A stretch of DNA of 9,379 nt, from IMG/VR virus record IMGVR_UViG_2778261313_000003, positions 1 to 9,379 of that record; one strand, written 5' to 3'. The DNA comes from a virus (taxonomy: Duplodnaviria; Heunggongvirae; Uroviricota; Caudoviricetes). Positions 1 to 9,379 of the stretch are shown one piece after another. Under the pieces are notes generated by a model that was not told where the DNA came from, made no database searches, and saw only the letters and a program-made list of their open reading frames with translations. The first letter of the stretch is position 1. Each line of letters starts with the position of its first letter. The position numbers were made by a program, and so were the translations under genes.

Positions 1-414
1 GATTACAGTATTTGGCATTGCAGCGGACGGCCAGAAGAACGGAACGCCAATAGCTGGAGCACCTTCTCCCAAACCAAGGTTTTCGAGAGCCGTTGGTACT
101 GTGCCGTCCGATTTGATATCACCAAACGGATTCTTGCGGCTCAGGTATTCAACAGCAAACCCCGATCCAAGCAATTCAACAAAACCGGGCAGATCACCAT
201 TATCAAGCACATCCCGTTGCGTTTTATCACTTACAAACTGGGCCAGAGCTGCAGCAATAAAGCTGGCCTGCCGAATAACCTTATTGACTTGCGCACTGGA
301 GGCTTTCCCTGCTGTAAATCCAGATAAAAGCGCGGGCAACGCTTCCCATTCCTCCTGCGATATAACATTGGCATTTCGATCCGTTGCAAACGCTTTAAAG
401 TCATTTTTCGCCAT
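1..414 (-). CDS. phage tail fiber protein, N-terminal 138 codons (gene continues beyond window start)
   Basis: Not in the ORF track because it has no stop in the window. Minus-strand ATG at 412..414 overlaps the stop of the upstream gene (ATGA), preceded by GGGGAG. The frame is open to position 1 ([61 protein letters not shown]...[16 protein letters not shown]). The fiber call rests on position directly after the J and I-position genes and a remembered resemblance to enterobacterial phage fiber N-termini. Confidence 0.5.
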
Positions 415-1094
415 CAGAGTAATACTCCCCATGCTCCTACATCAAAACCACTGATGAATTCGTTATCCATATCAAAACCAAAAAATTTTGAGCCTTCCGA
501 TGGGGTTTCCACCGAAGGTGTTTCAATGCCACCCGCCCATACCCCGGCGGCTTTTACTGTGAGATACCCCTGTTTAATTGCCGCAATTAACTCACGCGAT
601 ACATCTGAAATATCAGTATCAGGAAAGACCCAGACCGATATCGTCATGTCCTGGTTATCGACTATCTGCATTCGCAGTCCGGATCCTGCTGTCGCCGCGT
701 CAAGAATTGCCGGAAGCGAATCATTCCGTCCGTCCCAGTTATTAATCGCAATCTTCGCTTTAAGGATGACACGATAAGTTTCATCGCTGAGGTACATGTA
801 TCCGGAATCAGGATCGTATGGCCCCTGCCATACACCCTGATCATATCCAAGCCCGTCGGTATCCCAGCTGAAATAGACACCTGAGATAGGCTGGCTGACA
901 ACACGGCTACGTCCGACCCACAATCCAAGAATGTCAAGTTGCACACCAACCGCAGAGTCAATATCAAATGCAGTAATCAGCCCTCTGGTGGCAGCCGCAA
1001 CATCAATAAGCGGCCGGGTCATCAGATCAACATGTGCAAGAAATTTAGGTTTGGTGGCGTGGTAGTTCGTGATTAGTTCGGTGTATTTGCTCAT
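414..1094 (-). CDS. baseplate wedge / tail-fiber-attachment protein (P2 gpI / Mu gp48 position)
   Basis: 226-aa ORF whose ATG overlaps the stop of the J-like gene (ATGA) and whose stop overlaps the start of the fiber gene. Family call is from position between baseplate J and the fiber, not from a verified domain hit. Confidence 0.55.
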
Positions 1095-2290
1095 GACTCC
1101 ACCGTTATAACGATATTTCCCGGGGTACAGGACGCAGATTCGTTGTATCTGATATCAATGTTTGATGACGACAAAGCCCCCGGGGATTTCCCAATCGTCA
1201 GTTCCTGAATATCGTAATAGCGTGCATTCCCGCCACTCACCACGCCAAGATTCGCCGGTGAGTAAATGCGACTCAAAAGGACCGAATCACCAATCGTCAG
1301 ACTATTGATATAGTCTGAAATAGCCTGCTGGATCTGCTGCCCTATCTGTGAGGTATAACCCGTAAAAACTTTTAATTTAATCCGGGCATAAACAGGCACA
1401 TCACTGGAACGCGAGAATTTGATTACATGGGGATTGCCGTATTTATCCGGAACCGTAACGGATGTTGTACCGTGAGTGGCTGTCCCCTGGCCTTTATTCC
1501 CTCTGATAGCCTGAGCAATATCCGTCACATCACCGCCATCCACAATTACAGCAACAGAGTGTGGCGGTAACCCGTTACCGTCCTCCGAACCAGTATCGTT
1601 TTCATAGAGTTTGTGGCGGGTTACACCGGTAACATTAGAAACAGCACCATCCAGTGCTTCAAATGGGGTTATTGATGGCAACGCAACACTTTGCGACTGG
1701 CGGATACGTAACTCCGCATCAGTTTCTGCTGGAGTGCCTACAGTAGCTGCAGCAGGATTGGTTACCGAAACCCAGCCACGGGTTGGCGTATTAATTTCAG
1801 TGATAGTTCCAGCCAGCGCCGCCACTGCACCACTGACGGAACATTTTGCGGTCACCATCACTGTACCATCCACGCCGACCACCACTGAAGCAGGCAAACG
1901 CCATATCACATTATTACTGTCTTTCACGCTGCCATTAATGATGGTTGTTCCGGCAGTTCCTGTAAGAAGCAAATCAACCGTAGAATTCGTCGCGCCTTTA
2001 CGTGAAATACCATTTATTTTCACGTTACTGGTCAGTGCAGCCCCATAGCCGGTTGCCGGTGAAAAACAGTTGTAGACAGTTATCGCCATATTATTGGCAT
2101 CATGAATCGCCAGCGCCATCAGAGCCACCATCTGGCCGTCTTTGCTGTCCGGTTCGAGGTAGGCATCACTGCCATAAATCTGCTGAAAATAGCTAATCAG
2201 GGTGCTGAGTATCGTCTGATAATCAGGCGCACTGATCCCCTCCGCGGTTACCTTTGCAGATAAACCGAGAGAATCAAGGTTCAGAGCCAT
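1091..2290 (-). CDS. baseplate J-like protein (gp6/gpJ/Mu gp47 type)
   Basis: 399-aa ORF, translationally coupled on both sides by overlapping start/stop codons. Size, Gly/Thr/Ser-rich composition and position between the W-position and I-position genes match baseplate J proteins. Confidence 0.65.
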   Translation of the reverse strand: MALNLDSLGLSAKVTAEGISAPDYQTILSTLISYFQQIYGSDAYLEPDSKDGQMVALMALAIHDANNMAITVYNCFSPATGYGAALTSNVKINGISRKGATNSTVDLLLTGTAGTTIINGSVKDSNNVIWRLPASVVVGVDGTVMVTAKCSVSGAVAALAGTITEINTPTRGWVSVTNPAAATVGTPAETDAELRIRQSQSVALPSITPFEALDGAVSNVTGVTRHKLYENDTGSEDGNGLPPHSVAVIVDGGDVTDIAQAIRGNKGQGTATHGTTSVTVPDKYGNPHVIKFSRSSDVPVYARIKLKVFTGYTSQIGQQIQQAISDYINSLTIGDSVLLSRIYSPANLGVVSGGNARYYDIQELTIGKSPGALSSSNIDIRYNESASCTPGNIVITVES

Positions 2291-2643
2291 TACGCCTCCG
2301 ATGTAACAGTCGTTATTCCATAAAGAGTGTCGATTTCAGCGGAAAACATGACACGTCGGGTCGTGGTATCCACCGTCGTATTGAAAGAGAGGATTGATTT
2401 AACGCCCTGCGTTTCGAGGATGCGCTTACGGATCGCCAGGTTGTAGGTTTCCGGCTTCTGCTTACCGAGTACGGACTGGATCCACGGAGTCCCCTCGGTG
2501 GTGTCGAGAAACCATTGCCCATACCACAATTCGAATCGAGTTTTTACCGCCTGCGCCACGGCCTCCGGTGAGTTAATCAGCCAAGTGTCATCACCGCTGC
2601 CAAAGGTGTAATCGCCATCGGCGTCTTCACGTCTGTATCGCAT
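2290..2643 (-). CDS. small baseplate protein at the gpW/gp25 position (Mu gp46-like)
   Basis: 117-aa ORF whose ATG overlaps the stop of the V-like gene and whose stop overlaps the ATG of the J-like gene. Call is by synteny; no lysozyme-like motif was verified. Confidence 0.5.
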   Translation of the reverse strand: MRYRREDADGDYTFGSGDDTWLINSPEAVAQAVKTRFELWYGQWFLDTTEGTPWIQSVLGKQKPETYNLAIRKRILETQGVKSILSFNTTVDTTTRRVMFSAEIDTLYGITTVTSEA

Positions 2644-3395
2644 CAGTTTACTCCGTCGGTATTGCTTCCACCGCGCTGAACACCACCATGAGTGTGCGTA
2701 TCATCGATTGGCTTGCCGTTAGCCTTCACGCTACCCAAAAACTCAACAGCACCAGTGATTTTTGAAGCCACACCAGAAACAACAGACCCCACCATGCCTC
2801 CCATCCAGGTTAACAGGCCATGAATGGTTACTTTCTCAGAAAAATCAGCCAGAGGGGCAACCACATCAAGGCCCCCCGGAGCGACAATTTTAATTTTCCT
2901 GGTATCAGGATTAAGCTCAAAATAGGTGCTGCCGTCATCACTACGCAACTGTGTGGCACTGGTATTAATACCGCTAATCTTCCTTGCCTGCGACTGGGGA
3001 CCGACAATACAAAACGCATCCGATAAATCATGCATTCTGTCATCGACCGGCTCCTGTATCCCGCCACTCTGCCACCAGAAATCAATACAACGATCGGCAA
3101 AAATCACCAAACATTCATCACCGGCTTTAACTGGAAACGTTAGCGTACAGCCTCCGCCACGCGGGAATACCACTGGCACATCCACCAGCAATGGGTAATT
3201 TTTGGTAATGCGGTTGCCGTCGTTATCAATTTCAACGTAACGGATAGCAGGCTGTACAACCGCCGTCACCGCATCAGGAGCGAATGACTGAACAATGCCA
3301 GGCAAGGCGACACGGATCTGGTTCTTTGTTGTTTCCCGTTCAGATTTAAATGTTTCGGCAAGGTCGCCGCTGCGGGTCTGGTCAGATACTGCCAT
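2643..3395 (-). CDS. baseplate central spike / assembly protein V-like
   Basis: 250-aa ORF. The N-terminal half contains ...PLLVDVPVVFPRGGG...GDECLVIFADRCIDFWW...RMHDLSDAFCIVG, a pattern I recognise from spike N-terminal (gp138-N / Mu gp45-type) domains. RBS GGAG sits 8 nt upstream of the ATG at 3393..3395. Confidence 0.6.
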   Translation of the reverse strand: MAVSDQTRSGDLAETFKSERETTKNQIRVALPGIVQSFAPDAVTAVVQPAIRYVEIDNDGNRITKNYPLLVDVPVVFPRGGGCTLTFPVKAGDECLVIFADRCIDFWWQSGGIQEPVDDRMHDLSDAFCIVGPQSQARKISGINTSATQLRSDDGSTYFELNPDTRKIKIVAPGGLDVVAPLADFSEKVTIHGLLTWMGGMVGSVVSGVASKITGAVEFLGSVKANGKPIDDTHTHGGVQRGGSNTDGVN

Positions 3396-3411
3396 TTAGT
3401 AGGCTCCAGAA

Positions 3412-3440
3412 AGCAAAAAACCCTCCAAGTGGCGGGTTTG
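3412..3440 (-). terminator. putative rho-independent terminator downstream of the HEPN-like gene
   Basis: Minus-strand RNA would read CCCGCC-ACUU-GGAGGG (five G-C pairs with one internal G/A mismatch, extendable by flanking A-U pairs) followed by UUUUUU. It lies between the stop of the 142-aa gene (3460) and the RBS of the V-like gene (3404..3407). Confidence 0.45.
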
Positions 3441-3459
3441 AATTTTGAGAAATTTCAGC

Positions 3460-3888
3460 TTATGCAGTTAACGAGTCATCACCAATCTTCAGTAATTGAT
3501 TAACGATTGCATCGACCTCTTCCGCATCCAGAATTACACTTCTCGCGGTAATCCGGTTGATTTTCCGCTCAAGCTTGTAATCAGAATTAACACGTTGGGC
3601 ATGCGTCATTTTCAGTTTAACGCCGATTTTCTTTACTGCGTTAACATCAACATCGTTAAGTGCAGCTGCCTCACCACTACAAAAGGCCGTATAGACTCGC
3701 ATGTGAACTCCACCTTTTAGTTTTTCACCATCTTGTGTAGCGGTCGGTACCAGATTGTTGGTGATCCGTAAGACGGAATGGTACATACCATAGTATGCTC
3801 GGCTAATAGCATTTCTCGTCCACATCTCACCGTTTAGAGCCAGGGAATGCTTAGCCAATTCAAGAAAACAGGTATGCTCAACCGACAT
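3460..3888 (-). CDS. HEPN-like domain protein (UPF0332-type), candidate RNase toxin/effector
   Basis: 142-aa ORF with ordered motifs as in classical HEPN/UPF0332 proteins: SRAYYGMYH (res 29-37, Arg30-x6-His37), KGGVHMRVYTAF (58-69), QRVNSDY (98-104) and an acidic C-terminal helix DAEEVDAIVNQLL. The ATG shares one nucleotide with the stop of the upstream 243-aa gene (TAATG). Assignment is from motif recall, not an HMM score. Confidence 0.5.
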   Translation of the reverse strand: MSVEHTCFLELAKHSLALNGEMWTRNAISRAYYGMYHSVLRITNNLVPTATQDGEKLKGGVHMRVYTAFCSGEAAALNDVDVNAVKKIGVKLKMTHAQRVNSDYKLERKINRITARSVILDAEEVDAIVNQLLKIGDDSLTA

Positions 3889-4619
3889 TAGAGTTCCCCG
3901 GCTTCAAAGCATCCGACGCATTCTGAATCCGCAAGCCCCGCAATAATAATCTCATCAGCCAAGGCATTATTCATCTGCGAAAGAAGCACTGGATCGTCTG
4001 TTTTGACTTCAACGAACAGCGTATCAAGTTCTGACATTACATAAAAAGCATGAGCGCCAGCAAGACGAGCGCGGTACTTTTCTGCAACGTTCATCATGAG
4101 CCGCCCAATAGTTTTTAGCTCCTGAGCATGATCTTTTTGGGTATGCAGATAATTGAGCGTGTCATACCATTTGCCCATATCTTCAGGGCGCGGTACTTCC
4201 ATTGCAGTTAGCATCGGCATCACCTTTTCAAGCAAATCGATATCAACCCAGTATGCAGAAATTGTAGCAACCTCAGCCAATATCGTTGGATTAAGTGAAT
4301 CAGATGCTTTCTGAATCATCACATACTGGCGAGCATGCAAACCTAAGTTACGCAGCGCAATCGTATAGTTACAAAAAGAAACTGGATCGTTAGGCGCTAT
4401 TCTCAACCCCCGCTCACAGAGTGAACATCCTTCATCTATTTCACCAAGAACAAGCTTAGCTAAGCCTTCAATTGATAGCCCCTGATAACGTTCAGGTAGT
4501 TTCTTCGCTTCACGAATGATTCGATGGATTTCAAACTCACTCAGAAGGTTTTCACCCTTAGTTAATGAAGGAGTCAGAAGATCTAACAGTTCTCCTGATT
4601 TTGGCTGCGCTAAACTCAT
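3888..4619 (-). CDS. hypothetical protein, first gene of the two-gene cassette (possible antitoxin/sensor partner)
   Basis: 243-aa ORF, start ATG at 4617..4619 preceded by AGGA about 11 nt upstream. Predicted mostly helical with two CxxC motifs (C65-S-L-C68 and C234-V-G-C237). No Walker A and no nucleotidyltransferase G[SG]...DxD motif was seen. By eye the gene is roughly 40-45% GC against roughly 50-60% in flanking tail genes. Confidence 0.6.
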   Translation of the reverse strand: MSLAQPKSGELLDLLTPSLTKGENLLSEFEIHRIIREAKKLPERYQGLSIEGLAKLVLGEIDEGCSLCERGLRIAPNDPVSFCNYTIALRNLGLHARQYVMIQKASDSLNPTILAEVATISAYWVDIDLLEKVMPMLTAMEVPRPEDMGKWYDTLNYLHTQKDHAQELKTIGRLMMNVAEKYRARLAGAHAFYVMSELDTLFVEVKTDDPVLLSQMNNALADEIIIAGLADSECVGCFEAGEL

Positions 4620-4768
4620 GTTTTAGTTATTCCTGGCTTTAATGAAGTAGCATATCGATGGCAATCCACCATCAAAAAGTCAGTGCAGTGTAATCGCTCG
4701 TCTCAAAAAACAACAGTTTTTAGAGCACATTTTGTTGTTTTTCAGGCGTTACGAATTTCAGGTTACCT
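4620..4768 (-). promoter_or_regulatory. intergenic leader of the cassette with a weak sigma70-like promoter candidate
   Basis: 149-bp non-coding gap upstream of the 243-aa gene. On the minus strand the best candidate is TTGATG (plus 4670..4675) and TATGCT (plus 4649..4654) with a 15-nt spacer, which is suboptimal. No strong consensus promoter was found. Confidence 0.25.
4705..4742. repeat. AT-rich inverted repeat (10-11 bp arms, about 17-nt spacer)
   Basis: AAAAAACAACA at 4705..4715 is the exact reverse complement of TGTTGTTTTT(T) at 4733..4742. It lies in the gap between the secreted-protein gene and the cassette. Confidence 0.5.
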
Positions 4769-5110
4769 TCACCCAGCCACTTTTTTACAAGGGAAAGATC
4801 CGATGATTTTCGGCGCATCCATGCTGTTCTGCAGAAGCTGGACATTCAGGAATCGCGTTTCGGTACCAGGGCGACGAATGTATTCAAAGCCGTAGTTGTT
4901 ACCGTCTTTGGCAGGCATAAGCCCCATGTCTACTTTCAAACCATTGGTACCCAGTTCGGTGATTTTTTGAGAGGTAACTCTTTCACCGTTGATAGTCGAT
5001 AACTCGCCCTGGTTTGCAACCATAGTGTAGCCACCGCATTTAACCGTGAAGCCATCCGCCCACGCGCTGCACGCAGAAAAGACAGCTAACAGAAAAATAA
5101 TACCCCTCAT
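4769..5110 (-). CDS. small secreted protein or lipoprotein of unknown function
   Basis: 113-aa ORF with an N-terminal signal peptide (MRGIIFLLAVFSACSAWA; possible lipobox FSAC or signal peptidase I site AWA/DG) and two Cys in the mature part. RBS AGGGGA sits 6 nt upstream of the ATG, which lies 3 nt after the hub gene stop. Confidence 0.6.
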   Translation of the reverse strand: MRGIIFLLAVFSACSAWADGFTVKCGGYTMVANQGELSTINGERVTSQKITELGTNGLKVDMGLMPAKDGNNYGFEYIRRPGTETRFLNVQLLQNSMDAPKIIGSFPCKKVAG

Positions 5111-5113
5111 TGC

Positions 5114-6175
5114 TCATCCCCTTTGCAAAGCCGATCGCGTATACAGATCCGCCGCGCCACGCGCTTCGCACATCATATCCATGTACCACGCCTGGCCCCT
5201 TGTGTCGCCAGTGTACATAATCCCGCGCACAATATAAACGCCATCCGTTGCGATGCTGGCAGGCTGCGATGTGGTGCCGCTTAGCGTGATATTTCCATCC
5301 GTGTTCTGGTCGGTGATCTGACCACCAGCCATCGCAATATCGTTGTTCGACAAGGCGGTACGATACACGGAAGCCTGATCCAGCTGAATAAGTCCGTTAA
5401 CCCGGATGTTCGGATTAATAAGCGCGCGGACGTTTACGCCGTTACCGATAGTCTGCTGCGGCATGCCAATAAGCCCGGTAGCGCTGTTGAGCACAATCGC
5501 TTCATGAACATATTCGTTATTCGCCACCATCTGGCGCTGACCGTCCACGAATTGCCATGTTGCGCCACATTGCCCGGCTACGTTATCCATTAGATGCCGC
5601 GTCATGCCAAAGAGTACCCGCCCCCGGGGGAATACAGTAGCAGGCATTTCAGGCGTCAGGCCTTCGGTCGCGCCTTTGGCTTCGAAGTCTTTCATCAGCG
5701 CACGGTTTACATCAGCGACCGTGTAACCGGCAGCCAGCGTCTGTGAGGTTATACTGGTGGCAAAAGCCAGATCAGTATCTGCTGCCTGAATCAGGACGTA
5801 GGAATCAACCGGACTGTCTTTTCCTGTGACCGAGTAGCGAATTTCACCGCTGAAAATCAGTCCGTAGTTGCGGCCATCACTCTGACCCACGTCCGCCGCG
5901 TCAACTTCCCGCACGGTCCCGACGTCGCTTGCCGACACCTCCGGCGCGATACCGTCGTAACCGGCAATCAGACGCACTTTCGAAAACTCCTGCCCGGTGA
6001 TTCGGTTCACAGTATCTGCCGAGAGGTTATAAATTTTGATAGTCCCTACCCGGGACGCGCTGCTGATGTTGAACCAGTCGATCGTAAAGGTGACTTTAAA
6101 ATCACTTAGCTCAATTCCCTGACCGTTCCCGTCCACAAGCTGCAGCTCGAAATGTCTCATCCAGTTCTGTGACAT
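5114..6175 (-). CDS. putative baseplate hub protein (P2 gpD / Mu gp44 / XkdQ-like)
   Basis: 353-aa ORF with RBS GGAG 5 nt upstream of the ATG. Size, position after the tape measure and small tail genes, and a C-terminal ...DGVYIVRGIMYTGDTRGQAWY... segment resemble hub proteins of simple contractile tails. Identity is inferred. Confidence 0.45.
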   Translation of the reverse strand: MSQNWMRHFELQLVDGNGQGIELSDFKVTFTIDWFNISSASRVGTIKIYNLSADTVNRITGQEFSKVRLIAGYDGIAPEVSASDVGTVREVDAADVGQSDGRNYGLIFSGEIRYSVTGKDSPVDSYVLIQAADTDLAFATSITSQTLAAGYTVADVNRALMKDFEAKGATEGLTPEMPATVFPRGRVLFGMTRHLMDNVAGQCGATWQFVDGQRQMVANNEYVHEAIVLNSATGLIGMPQQTIGNGVNVRALINPNIRVNGLIQLDQASVYRTALSNNDIAMAGGQITDQNTDGNITLSGTTSQPASIATDGVYIVRGIMYTGDTRGQAWYMDMMCEARGAADLYTRSALQRG

Positions 6176-6177
6176 GC

Positions 6178-6480
6178 TTACTCCGTTGATACCAGTAAAT
6201 GGCTGCGACCGCCCAGGTCAGTTTTTGTGGGGTAATCCTGTGTGTTGTCATCACAGACCACCACCAGCTTAAAACCAAGCCCCATACAGGCGTACTGCGC
6301 CAGCAGGTCAGCACCAGTGACGAGAGGAATACCGGAGATTACCGGCTCCCCTCTGTCGTTCTGCAGGTCCATAATCCAGTACAGATCGCGCCATATGATG
6401 CTAATCCGCCAGGTGACACCACCCAGGACGATGCTGAACTGCTGGTTGTCCGCTGTCAGCGGAATTTCCTGAATTGTCAT
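6178..6480 (-). CDS. small phage tail/baseplate-associated protein (unassigned family)
   Basis: 100-aa ORF whose ATG at 6478..6480 overlaps the stop of the upstream 195-aa gene. Its stop lies 2 nt before the hub gene ATG. Confidence 0.5.
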   Translation of the reverse strand: MTIQEIPLTADNQQFSIVLGGVTWRISIIWRDLYWIMDLQNDRGEPVISGIPLVTGADLLAQYACMGLGFKLVVVCDDNTQDYPTKTDLGGRSHLLVSTE

Positions 6481-7067
6481 TAGCCGCCCCCCAGTAATGA
6501 CGCCACGTTACCCGTGATGCTTTTCAGCAGTGAAGTATCTGGAGGTTTTGTGGTTTTGTTGCCGCTGTTCTGTACCGCCGACGTGCTGGCCCCTTCCTTC
6601 ATGTTGGTTTTATCCGCGACGGTAATCTGCTGTGTCCGGGAGATAATGACCTCCCTCAGGGTGAGGACGGCGGACAGGACGTTTTCGGTTGTCTTGTCCG
6701 TCGTCACTTCCAGCGCCCGGATCAACATGTTGCTGTACAGCCGTTTACCGGTTACCACATCGAAGGGGATACGGCTTTCCTGCAGATCCAGTAGCTCCTG
6801 ATACGTCTGCTGAGGACTCAGGCCGAGCAGGCTGGTAGCCGTCAGGTTACTGGCAAAATCCAGCAATGCGCCGCCACCGGCGAAACCAACCTCCATCACC
6901 ACTTCTGACGGTTTTTTATAGGCATGATCAGCGACAGCGGCCCCGACCTCTACCGGATGCTCTGTTATTTCAAGCATATCTGTATGCTTCTCTGAAATAA
7001 CAACACTGGGAACAATCATTCCTATTTTTCTGCTCTGCTGATGAAAAAGTGTAGAGAGAATATCCAC
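6480..7067 (-). CDS. phage tail protein (unassigned family), probable GTG start
   Basis: 195-aa ORF. Codon 1 is GTG (plus 7065..7067), overlapping the tape measure TAG stop and preceded by GAGGGTGGGG. The first internal ATG (codon 17) has no good RBS. Confidence 0.5.
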   Translation of the reverse strand: MDILSTLFHQQSRKIGMIVPSVVISEKHTDMLEITEHPVEVGAAVADHAYKKPSEVVMEVGFAGGGALLDFASNLTATSLLGLSPQQTYQELLDLQESRIPFDVVTGKRLYSNMLIRALEVTTDKTTENVLSAVLTLREVIISRTQQITVADKTNMKEGASTSAVQNSGNKTTKPPDTSLLKSITGNVASLLGGG

Positions 7068-9052
7068 TACCCCACCCTCACCTGATTACTTCGCATGACC
7101 TGAGCATTTGCAGACTGTTGCCGACGTGCAACCTCATTACCGACAGCGTGCGGATCTCCGCCACCGTAAATATGGTAGGTATTTTGCTGGTTAACCTCTG
7201 TCACTTTGCCACTAATTCCCGCCACGGCAGCCTTATTAATCAGCTCTCGAGAATAGATATTTCTTCCATTCTCATGCTGGATAATGCTGCTCATCAATGC
7301 TGACATGGTTTGCGGATCGCTCATATTCAGGGCAGCCCGGGGATCCACTCCCAGTCGTTGCGATACAGCCCTGATATACGCGGTTGTGTTGTTATTATCA
7401 GACGCAGGTGCCCAGGTAGAGATAATTTTCTCCACACTGTTTATTCCCCGTCCGGCGTACAGCATTAACTGACGAGCAAGAGCCCGTAATCCATCAAAAG
7501 CGGTTTCAAATCTGGCAAATCGCCCGCCCGGTCGTTCAAGAGAAGCCCCCGCCTGACCAGCAAAATTAAGGTTTCCCGGATTGTTATTCCGTTCTCCTCG
7601 CTTCGTAGCCTGTGCATGTTGTTCCGGCTCAGCACCTGGAATATCTGACTGAATATTTGCGCCTTTTACGGTATGAGGATTACGACCAAAATCGGTATCA
7701 ATGCCAAGCCAGCGCAATGAATCTCCAATATTTTGTTTCGTGTAATCCCAGGATGACTTCGCACTGGCACCAATATTTTCGCGATCGGAGTACAAATAAG
7801 CAGCATAAGCCATCCAGCCTTTTAACCATGGCGGTACCGGCAAACCAGATATTTTCCCGAAAGCCCCCAGAACCCTGGATACCCAAACACCCGCGATGAA
7901 TGTACCGAGGATTTCCAGTGCATTTTGCCAGCCGCCAACACCATCTTTTAGTTCCAGAAGGTGATCACGAAGCCAGGTGATCGCATCCTTCGCTTTATCT
8001 ATTGCCGGTTGCCATTTTTCCCAGTCGATAAGACTGTTACCGCCTTCTTTCCATGTTTTGTAGTCTTCCCACAAGAGACCGAGAGCCACGATCAGACCGG
8101 TAATCAGCCCTATAGGTGACATCCAGAAAGTAGAGTTAAGTATCCGCATGGCGACAACCAGACCGCCGATAACCTCTATCAGGGTTTTCGTTTCGGCATC
8201 CAGTTTCCCCCACCACTCGATGATATCTCCGACACCATCGACTATCCGAAATGCTACCCGCCCGACTATCTCACCCAGCCAGAGGATCCCCTTTATGACC
8301 TTTGTGATGGTGACTTCAATTTTGGGAAAATTTTCAATTATCTTTTTGCGCAGGTTATCAATCTGCCCCGCCAGTCCGTCCGCAAGATTCGATCCGATTT
8401 TGTCCCGCGCCATCCCGGCCATTTCACCGAGCGATTTCAGCGAGGTCATAAACCGGTTTGACGATAAGGCAGCCTGATCGGCATTAAATCCGATCGCTTT
8501 CACCATTTCTGAATACTGAGCGCTGAACTGCCCCACTCCGCGACGCATAGCCATCAGGGTATTTTCGTCAATGCCCAGCATCTGCGCATACTGGTTAGCC
8601 CGGTAATACGGCATGCTGCTGAGTTTCTGTCCAACGCCCGTAAAGATAGCAGCCATGTCACGCATGTTACCGCGGGCATCACGGGTCTGTACGCCCAGGC
8701 GATTCAGAAAGCCTTCTGCTCCGGGATTGTTACGAATAAACCGGGAGAGGCTTTCCAGAGAAGATCGCGCAGCGTCCACACTGCCGCCAACCTGCGAAAC
8801 CGCATAGCCAATAGACTGAATTCCCTGGACCGTCGCGCCGGTGCGCTGTGACGCCCAGTAAAGATTATCCAGGCCGGAGGCGATCTTAGCCGTGAAGGCC
8901 ACCACGGACAGCGCAGCTCCTTCAACAGCCAGCCCCATTTTGATGACATTTGCAGTTGTACCGGCGAGGACAGAACCGAACTTTTTCGCTCCTGCATCAT
9001 CCACACTGAAGCCAAGCGAGACGAGGAAATCTTTAATAGTTTCAGCGTTCAT
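7067..9052 (-). CDS. phage tail tape measure protein
   Basis: Long ORF (661 aa from the ATG at 9050..9052, which has GGAG 8 nt upstream; the track's TTG start at 9073 adds 7 codons). Helical, Ala/Gly-rich N-terminal half, a central hydrophobic stretch (LIEVIGGLVVAMRILNSTFWMSPIGLITGLIVALGLLW) and a C-terminal segment containing NNPGNL ... WAP ... HENG. It sits at the head of the baseplate gene block. Confidence 0.75.
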   Translation of the reverse strand: MNAETIKDFLVSLGFSVDDAGAKKFGSVLAGTTANVIKMGLAVEGAALSVVAFTAKIASGLDNLYWASQRTGATVQGIQSIGYAVSQVGGSVDAARSSLESLSRFIRNNPGAEGFLNRLGVQTRDARGNMRDMAAIFTGVGQKLSSMPYYRANQYAQMLGIDENTLMAMRRGVGQFSAQYSEMVKAIGFNADQAALSSNRFMTSLKSLGEMAGMARDKIGSNLADGLAGQIDNLRKKIIENFPKIEVTITKVIKGILWLGEIVGRVAFRIVDGVGDIIEWWGKLDAETKTLIEVIGGLVVAMRILNSTFWMSPIGLITGLIVALGLLWEDYKTWKEGGNSLIDWEKWQPAIDKAKDAITWLRDHLLELKDGVGGWQNALEILGTFIAGVWVSRVLGAFGKISGLPVPPWLKGWMAYAAYLYSDRENIGASAKSSWDYTKQNIGDSLRWLGIDTDFGRNPHTVKGANIQSDIPGAEPEQHAQATKRGERNNNPGNLNFAGQAGASLERPGGRFARFETAFDGLRALARQLMLYAGRGINSVEKIISTWAPASDNNNTTAYIRAVSQRLGVDPRAALNMSDPQTMSALMSSIIQHENGRNIYSRELINKAAVAGISGKVTEVNQQNTYHIYGGGDPHAVGNEVARRQQSANAQVMRSNQVRVG

Positions 9053-9142
9053 TATCCTCTCTCCATTTCTCAATGCGCCGCTGGTTATCCGCTTTTACCG
9101 CCAGATGGTCATTCAAGAGAGCAATGTCATACAAATCGACAG
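9042..9142 (-). pseudogene. 3' remnant of the gene upstream of the tape measure gene, severed by the IS insertion (possibly tail assembly chaperone)
   Basis: Only one minus-strand frame is open from the IS boundary (9142) to a TGA at 9042..9044 (VDLYDIALLNDHLAVKADNQRRIEKWREDNER*), ending 11 nt inside the tape measure gene. The other two frames stop within 5 to 10 codons. The frame has no start codon in the window. Confidence 0.3.
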
Positions 9143-9379
9143 TGTAGATTCAATCTGTCAATGCAACACCCCTTTCAATTATCTCTTTCGGTGTTTTGAA
9201 CTTCAGTGTCTTTCTCGGTCTGTTGTTTAGCTGAGCAGCAACCAGATCTAGTTCATGTTGAGTATATTGGGCAAGACATGTCTTTTTAGGAAAGTACTGC
9301 CGAATTAGCCCATTTGTGTTCTCATTTGTTCCCCGCTGCCAAGGACTCTGAGGATCGCAGAAGTAAACTTTAACGCCGG
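9143..9379 (-). mobile_element. IS30-family insertion sequence, right end (element continues beyond window)
   Basis: The terminal sequence TGTAGATTCAATCTGTCAATGCAAC begins at 9143. The adjacent minus-strand frame encodes a transposase C-terminus carrying the IS30-family signature around the catalytic Glu (PWQRGTNENTNGLIRQYFPK). Confidence 0.8.
9150..9379 (-). CDS. IS30-family transposase, C-terminal 75 codons (5' part outside window)
   Basis: Minus-strand translation ...VKVYFCDPQSPWQRGTNENTNGLIRQYFPKKTCLAQYTQHELDLVAAQLNNRPRKTLKFKTPKEIIERGVALTD*, with the stop at 9150..9152 inside the terminal inverted repeat. Confidence 0.8.
   Translation of the reverse strand, partial: GVKVYFCDPQSPWQRGTNENTNGLIRQYFPKKTCLAQYTQHELDLVAAQLNNRPRKTLKFKTPKEIIERGVALTD

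Follow-up and report, generated by a model that had tools for sequence, protein, structure and literature searches.

A mobile two-gene module pairing a TPR-like protein with a HEPN-fold protein in enterobacterial temperate phages

Results

A two-gene module between the hub and spike genes of a prophage tail operon

The stretch of DNA analysed here, referred to throughout as the window, comprises 9,379 nucleotides (nt) of a Caudoviricetes virus record (IMG/VR IMGVR_UViG_2778261313_000003, positions 1 to 9,379). It covers the tail and baseplate genes of a SEN34/Brunovirus-type E. coli prophage, and all of these genes lie on the minus strand (Table 1). Three small genes sit between the hub and the spike (window 3396-5113), and the two nearest the spike, encoding a 243-amino-acid (aa) protein with TPR-like repeats and a 142-aa partner with a HEPN fold, form the two-gene module that is the subject of this work. 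The G+C content of the cassette is 0.41-0.46, compared to 0.50-0.56 for the flanks. Many E. coli chromosomes carry the same DNA at 99.6-99.9% identity, and the proteins of all three small genes are labelled hypothetical by RefSeq in these chromosomes. The whole cassette was present in 32 of the 336 E. coli genomes that matched the region.

The 243-aa protein is modelled as a TPR-like array with an acidic α/β cap

The open reading frame (ORF) for the 243-aa protein runs from an ATG start to a TAA stop, and this start codon agrees with the aligned N-termini of 25 homologues. Scans of the protein against Pfam, NCBIfam and PADLOC returned nothing above threshold, with the best PADLOC match for the TPR region, PDC-M71B, at noise level (E = 0.037), and a single-sequence search of the PDB also produced only noise. 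In contrast, comparison with PHROGs gave a match to phrog_22649 (E = 4.6e-173), along with weaker full-length or partial matches to two more phage families with no function assigned there. A search of 5.8 billion proteins identified 26 clusters, all of about 243 aa and all from Enterobacterales, and a profile search of 1.84 billion representatives recovered about 60 full-length clusters at 50% identity, ranging from 236 to 276 aa. The remaining significant profile matches were generic multi-repeat TPR proteins that aligned with residues 42-112 only. A preliminary description of this DNA, made from its letters, had presented the protein as an orphan without any assignable motif, but these results place it in a phage protein family with TPR-like repeats.

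Further evidence for the repeats came from the family profile, which matched designed consensus TPRs (E = 7.8e-10), and from 32 relatives scanned singly, which matched TPR models only and nothing in the C-terminal unit. The AF2 model of the protein (pLDDT 90.5, pTM 0.87) is mostly helical and has a β-β-α-β unit at its C-terminal end, so that the earlier label of a helical protein is accurate for the bulk of the chain but not for its end. A comparison with predicted viral structures gave end-to-end matches to two uncharacterised siphovirus proteins (TM 0.66-0.68). Based on the match to consensus TPRs and on these predicted structures, the protein is best modelled as a short array of TPR-like repeats that ends in a small and strongly acidic α/β unit. 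The array agrees with the definition of TPR proteins, i.e., tandem helix-turn-helix repeats of ~34 aa that form a right-handed superhelix and are recognised by Pfam TPR models. Homology to a known family therefore exists at the level of the TPR fold, but does not extend to function. Within the C-terminal unit, L216, N217, L220, L229 and F238 are conserved family-wide. The isoelectric point (pI) is 4.05 for this unit and 4.84 for the whole protein, opposite in charge to the HEPN protein at 8.55. A ferredoxin-like αββαβ topology for the unit, and its match to RimP, are guesses.

The 243-aa protein is not an antitoxin of the minimal nucleotidyltransferase (MNT) type, a class defined by a Pol-β-type nucleotidyltransferase (NTase) fold with a G[SG]-x9-13-DxD signature. 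The absence of this signature had been recognised in the preliminary description and was confirmed: there is no G[SG] anywhere in the protein, and the sole DxD (D126-I-D) is located in a helix. In addition, the Pfam model NTP_transf_2 gave no match at E <= 1 and the NTase fold is absent from the AF2 model.

The 142-aa partner has a HEPN fold with a variant motif pattern

The signs of HEPN membership in the 142-aa protein are weak but consistent. The protein alone has no match in Pfam, and the PADLOC model HEPN_IX scored at noise level (E = 0.0036). Pfam HEPN was matched in 7 of 27 relatives (best E = 0.062), the name 'UPF0332 family' is attached to the protein by one source, and a profile match to AF0298 (2hsb) spans both conserved motifs (E = 0.08). 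The protein displays the four-helix up-and-down bundle of the HEPN fold but lacks the Rx4-6H motif expected at the end of helix 3. The residues invariant in 41 distinct partner sequences, which extend to ~25% identity, are E21, R25, N26, S29, R30, Y32, Y33, H62, R99, D103 and Y104. Positions +4 to +6 after the invariant R99 are occupied by D103/Y104, K and L, with no His, and the invariant H62 is in an insert between helices 2 and 3. Anantharaman et al. (2013) reported the same pattern in AF0298-like HEPN-T proteins and proposed that it constitutes an alternative RNase active site (PMC3710099); R99, D103 and H62 match this variant site. The HEPN partner is thus non-canonical, as the preliminary description had held.

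The two genes form an obligate pair

Loci related to the module were retrieved through the HEPN partner from genomes and IMG/VR, down to 25-30% identity, yielding 77 in total. At 75 of these, an ORF of the TPR-α/β family lies directly upstream on the same strand and abuts or overlaps the HEPN start. One of the two exceptions is cut by the end of its contig, and the other is a high-GC locus (L070) with an upstream ORF of similar length. The same pairing is seen from the TPR side, where all six homologues looked up, ranging from 69% identity to profile-only similarity and including two distant ones, have a HEPN gene directly downstream. In the window, the TPR stop and the HEPN start are fused as TAATG, with base 3888 common to the TAA and the ATG; at other loci the overlap reads ATGA or TGATG. 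This conserved order and overlap correspond to the layout of type II toxin-antitoxin systems, which are bicistronic, with the antitoxin gene upstream and the two genes overlapping or adjacent. Pairs of loci that are more alike in one protein are also more alike in the other (r = 0.97 for all pairwise identities, 0.83 for pairs with HEPN identity <60%), and the TPR protein diverges faster, to ~17% identity where the HEPN protein keeps 20-40%.

At L070, a high-GC viral contig, the homologue of the HEPN partner (E = 3.4e-11) is preceded by a 262-aa ORF (2404-3616 for the two together) that resembles the TPR-α/β protein in length and apparent layout. The alignment is colinear but of low probability, with an hhalign E of 0.017, which is not significant. 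From this locus, the range of the module may reach well beyond Enterobacterales.

The pair is mobile among unrelated phages

The settings in which the pair occurs differ widely, with at least 20 distinct sets of flanking genes. Of the fetched loci, 39 have it in the hub-spike gap, and elsewhere the neighbours include a tape-measure gene, Rha/KilAC-type antirepressors, a CI/LexA-like repressor, a tyrosine integrase and a Doc-like gene. Enterobacter and Klebsiella prophages carry the pair in different parts of the tail region, and in Klebsiella phage vB_Kpn_Chronis it corresponds to gp57/gp58, between the replication and lysis genes in a nin-like region. The related phages YP3, SEN34 and vB_EcoM-606R2 (L002, L003 and L004) lack the pair and have unrelated cargo in the hub-spike gap, consisting of one 266-aa ORF, two small ORFs and three ORFs, respectively. 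The pair therefore behaves as an accessory 'moron' module and not as a virion component.

Two further observations were made on the sites the pair occupies. The hub-spike gap of SEN34/Brunovirus-like prophages, corresponding to the interval occupied by the three small genes in the window, is a cargo hotspot. In addition, one IMG/VR phage contig (L060) harbours two divergent copies of the pair ~3 kb apart (4238-5432 and 8168-9314), and a gene bearing a Doc/Fic-like motif (GFNDANKRTA) comes after the second copy.

Leader and expression signals

When leaders were compared, a promoter-like element, TTGAAR-N17-TAnACT, recurred in several unrelated contexts, 50-120 nt ahead of the TPR start. The spacer of this element contains a TTACC-N5-GGTAA palindrome in three backbones, but not in the window, which keeps the TACACT (Table 1). 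These data suggest that the module may bring its own regulated promoter. In Enterobacter, Ewingella and Klebsiella prophages, the element and its palindrome accompany the module, and the palindrome may be an operator; the element is located upstream of the TPR gene at ~4907-4935 in L005, ~4880-4908 in L008 and ~4891-4919 in L010.

In the minus-strand transcript of the window, just past the stop of the 113-aa gene, we also noticed an A/T-rich inverted repeat, AAAAACAACA-N17-TGTTGTTTTT, followed by T residues (4725-4761). This repeat was not called by a consensus scan, but it may act as a weak terminator between the 113-aa gene and the module.

The CxxC motifs are incidental to the family

The preliminary description had drawn attention to two distant motifs in the 243-aa protein, C65-x2-C68 and C234-x2-C237, and had proposed that they jointly coordinate a metal ion. 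Translation of the ORF confirmed both motifs, with Cys at positions 65, 68, 83, 234 and 237. In residue shuffles of a 243-aa sequence with five Cys, two or more CxxC arose in only 0.2% of cases (P ~0.002), indicating that the presence of two motifs in the window sequence exceeds what composition would produce. Most sequences of the closest clade, to which the double motif is limited (E. coli, Citrobacter and Salmonella), keep all four Cys. If the motifs together formed a Zn-Cys4 site needed for function, however, the Cys would be expected to persist in the rest of the family. In the alignment of 26 close members, only C234 is nearly invariant; C65 is replaced by A, I, S, F, Y or T, C68 by L or M, C83 by G, L or A, and C237 by Y or F. 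Among 51 representatives of the wider family, Cys occurs at position 65 in 7, at 68 in 25, at 234 in 24 and at 237 in 3, and both motifs are found in the window's own cluster only. The abundant Salmonella orthologue (P0008, 605 contigs) has A65. Several members have one Cys in total, and the architecture and HEPN partner of members with one or two Cys are unchanged.

The identity of the replacements and the structural context of the Cys also argue against a metal site. When 111 distinct family sequences were examined, Cys was found to give way in the great majority of cases to I, V, L, F or Y (I/V/L/Y at 65, F/L/I at 68 and F or Y at 237 in most relatives), a pattern expected of buried core positions and not of metal ligands. 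The model puts C65 and C68 midway along a helix (61-74). C234 and C237 occupy positions i and i+3 of a β-strand and would therefore be expected on opposite faces; neither arrangement has knuckle geometry. This differs from Cys4 zinc modules such as the zinc ribbon or treble clef, in which four conserved Cys or His on knuckles, turns or helix N-termini converge on one point. One result weighs against regarding all of the Cys as incidental: C68 and C234 co-occur more often than independence predicts, with an odds ratio of 9.2 across family sequences that is uncorrected for phylogeny, and a clade-specific Cys pair with some structural role is possible. Given the alignments and the model, a functional Cys4 metal site is not supported as a family feature, and we consider joint metal chelation by the two motifs very improbable. 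We read the CxxC residues as core positions that simply carry Cys in a single clade, and in practical terms the CxxC pair is not the feature to follow.

Neighbouring genes

The 113-aa protein encoded upstream of the module has an N-terminal signal peptide (MRGIIFLLAVFSACSAWA...) and is a member of phrog_3443, for which no function is assigned there. Its gene tracks the SEN34-like backbone whatever cargo comes after it, e.g., in phage YP3, where different cargo adjoins it, and it was missing from the other, non-SEN34-like backbones checked in which the TPR-HEPN pair sits. It was considered as a third component of the module and rejected, as it is linked to the backbone and absent beside the pair in other phages. 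The 113-aa protein could be a periplasmic or envelope moron in its own right. Further upstream, the tape-measure ORF (7767-9755 in L001) has a TTG start in the mechanical ORF list. It seems to carry a muralytic domain, based on its RefSeq annotation and on the match of its Ewingella homologue to Pfam SLT.

Table 1. Features of the window, from the end of the displayed strand to its beginning
Feature	Position	Strand	Basis or remark
Tape measure	7067-9073	minus	annotated as lytic transglycosylase (RefSeq)
Dit-like protein	6480-7067	minus	
Baseplate plug	6178-6480	minus	
Hub	5114-6175	minus	
113-aa protein	4769-5110	minus	signal peptide
Non-coding leader upstream of the module, 149 nt	4620-4768	minus	
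-10-like TACACT	4687-4692	minus	73 nt before ATG; conserved in other backbones; poor -35 only
243-aa TPR-like/α-β protein, gene 1 of the two-gene module	3888-4619	minus	ORF, translation, homologues
TPR-like helical-repeat region, aa 7-181	4077-4601	minus	ten helices, about four TPR-like pairs
C65-S-L-C68, inside TPR helix 61-74	4416-4427	minus	translation, model
Acidic C-terminal α/β unit, aa 186-240	3900-4064	minus	β186-194, β198-205, α210-226, β234-240
C234-V-G-C237, on the last β-strand	3909-3920	minus	translation, model
142-aa HEPN-fold partner	3460-3888	minus	AF0298/UPF0332-like
Spike	2643-3395	minus	
Wedge	2290-2643	minus	
Baseplate J	1091-2290	minus	

Discussion

Based on the data presented above, we consider it probable, on balance, that the pair is a toxin-antitoxin-like or abortive-infection module in which a basic HEPN RNase effector, acting through R99 and H62, is bound and silenced by the acidic TPR-α/β protein, with the TPR groove possibly serving as a sensor. 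In such a module, the HEPN protein would be the probable effector, cleaving RNA via an AF0298-type site in place of Rx4-6H, and the acidic TPR-α/β protein would bind its basic partner and hold it inactive in the manner of an antitoxin. The TPR groove, which evolves fast, could plausibly receive a protein or peptide from an infecting phage, and binding or titration by this ligand would then free the RNase and abort the infection. A role as antitoxin or sensor, which was among those suggested in the preliminary description, fits the strict pairing, the gene order, the stop/start overlap, the co-variation and the opposite charge of the two proteins. A more specific version, which we advance only tentatively, is that the pair is a minimal two-protein pattern-recognition immune module in which a small, fast-evolving TPR receptor would directly gate a non-canonical HEPN RNase of the AF0298 type, with its R/H62 site, without an NTPase, a nucleotide signal or covalent modification, and which would serve as interchangeable cargo of many unrelated temperate phages.

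Several known systems share elements of this arrangement. The usual partner of the AF0298/UPF0332 'HEPN-T' clade is an MNT nucleotidyltransferase. Compared to HEPN/MNT systems (HepT-MntA, type VII), the HEPN half of the pair is AF0298/UPF0332-like by fold and motif pattern, but its partner is the 243-aa TPR-α/β protein and not a minimal nucleotidyltransferase. Since this partner has neither the MNT signature nor the NTase fold, and no match to NTP_transf_2, neutralisation of the AMPylation type is not expected. Operonic HEPN-TPR or HEPN-Sel1 associations have been described in other HEPN families with canonical motifs, LA2681 and AbiU2 (PMC3710099). These have in common with the pair a HEPN protein in an operon with an α-α repeat protein, at mobile or defence-related loci, but they carry a canonical Rx4-6H, in contrast with the AF0298-like HEPN protein without the motif His found here; no sequence relation of the TPR-α/β family to those repeat partners was found, no test aimed at one having been made.

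Two prophage-borne HEPN proteins, HepS (Gifsy-1) and Tha (S. aureus prophages), bring about abortive infection when triggered by phage tail proteins, i.e., structural proteins of the incoming phage, and Tha has a dedicated inhibitor, Ith (PMC13043305, PMC11087260). Location of a HEPN gene among prophage accessory genes is common to all three, and a trigger among phage structural proteins is known for HepS and Tha. HepS acts solo, with a canonical R100-H105 and no co-occurring partner, whereas the HEPN protein of the pair is coupled to a TPR protein and lacks the motif His. The homology shown to HepS and Tha is that of the HEPN fold only. Avs/STAND receptors with TPR arms likewise couple a TPR-type candidate sensor of phage proteins to a nuclease effector. 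This is an analogy only, as the pair has no NTPase or oligomerisation module and its sensor and effector are separate small proteins. The E. coli-validated system DS-28 of DefensePredictor also consists of two genes, for a small HEPN protein and an unannotated protein of ~250 aa. It was rejected as a relative of the pair, given its opposite gene order, its canonical HEPN motif (RNSVAH) and, by inspection, no sequence resemblance to either protein of the window. The accessions WP_000050470 and WP_000110002 do not appear in the part of the DefensePredictor supplementary tables available to us, and a literature search returned no mention of these accessions, PDC-M71 or HEPN_IX.

A number of points weigh against this favoured reading. 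That the two proteins bind, that the HEPN protein cleaves RNA and is toxic, that regulation runs in the direction proposed and that the module acts against phages are all features that we infer. The canonical Rx4-6H His is absent from the HEPN protein, and the alternative site is a published prediction for this clade (PMC3710099). Co-variation of adjacent genes is also expected from simple co-inheritance. In type II systems, the toxin halts growth and the antitoxin neutralises it through direct binding, usually with a DNA-binding domain of its own for autoregulation; no such domain (helix-turn-helix or ribbon-helix-helix) was detected in the TPR protein or the HEPN protein. The 243-aa gene lies within a late tail operon, and a strict consensus scan of the window found no minus-strand σ70 promoter or terminator, and thus no convincing promoter for expression in a lysogen. 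Finally, the defence-system models of PADLOC-DB v2 gave only the noise-level matches cited above (HEPN_IX and PDC-M71B) and NCBIfam gave nothing, placing neither protein in a catalogued anti-phage defence system.

The main rival to the reading we favour holds that the HEPN protein is inactive by default and that the TPR protein is an activator or adaptor, capturing a phage protein or an RNA-protein substrate and thereby switching on or targeting the nuclease. STAND/Avs receptors use TPR domains as their sensor modules (PMC9122126), which lends weight to such a role, as do the faster evolution of the TPR protein relative to the effector and the lack of labile-antitoxin features and of any detected DNA-binding domain. 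HepS offers a precedent, being non-toxic alone and switched on allosterically when a phage tail-tip protein is present (PMC13043305). However, the overlapping, partner-first gene order and the acidic-versus-basic charge are typical of antitoxin-toxin pairs, and the present results fit inhibition and activation alike. We regard activation as unlikely, although it deserves to be kept in view.

A different possibility is that the pair serves the phage itself, in tail or baseplate assembly, takeover of host RNA or counter-defence. In the window and the 39 fetched loci with the same placement, the module is inside the tail operon, between hub and spike and on the same strand, and in the window no consensus promoter or terminator of its own was found. 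This explanation is nevertheless difficult to reconcile with the close relatives of the phage that lack the pair and carry unrelated cargo at the site, with the presence of the pair in unrelated phages next to integrase, repressor, antirepressor and nin-region genes, with its G+C content below that of the flanks, and with the promoter-like TTGAAR-N17-TAnACT element that travels with the module in several backbones. Furthermore, neither protein resembles a virion protein. A role in the phage's own cycle accordingly strikes us as quite improbable.

HEPN nucleases are recurrent effectors of bacterial immunity and of toxin-antitoxin systems. To our knowledge, no activity has been demonstrated for the AF0298/UPF0332 branch that lacks the catalytic His. 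Here, a HEPN protein of this type is strictly coupled to a different partner, a TPR-α/β protein, and the pair hops among many temperate phages of gut bacteria, including prophages of E. coli, Salmonella and Klebsiella. The module is uncharacterised and widespread in enterobacterial temperate phages, and it likely follows the familiar logic of a HEPN effector with a cognate regulator. If the pair is indeed an abortive-infection module, it would represent a defence system missed by current catalogues, and the hub-spike gap of SEN34-like prophages would be a hotspot worth mining for cargo. It would also provide a small, tractable system in which to study how a repeat-protein sensor controls a nuclease. 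Should the more specific pattern-recognition scheme hold, the pair would give the AF0298/UPF0332-type HEPN active site its first function and activation mechanism.

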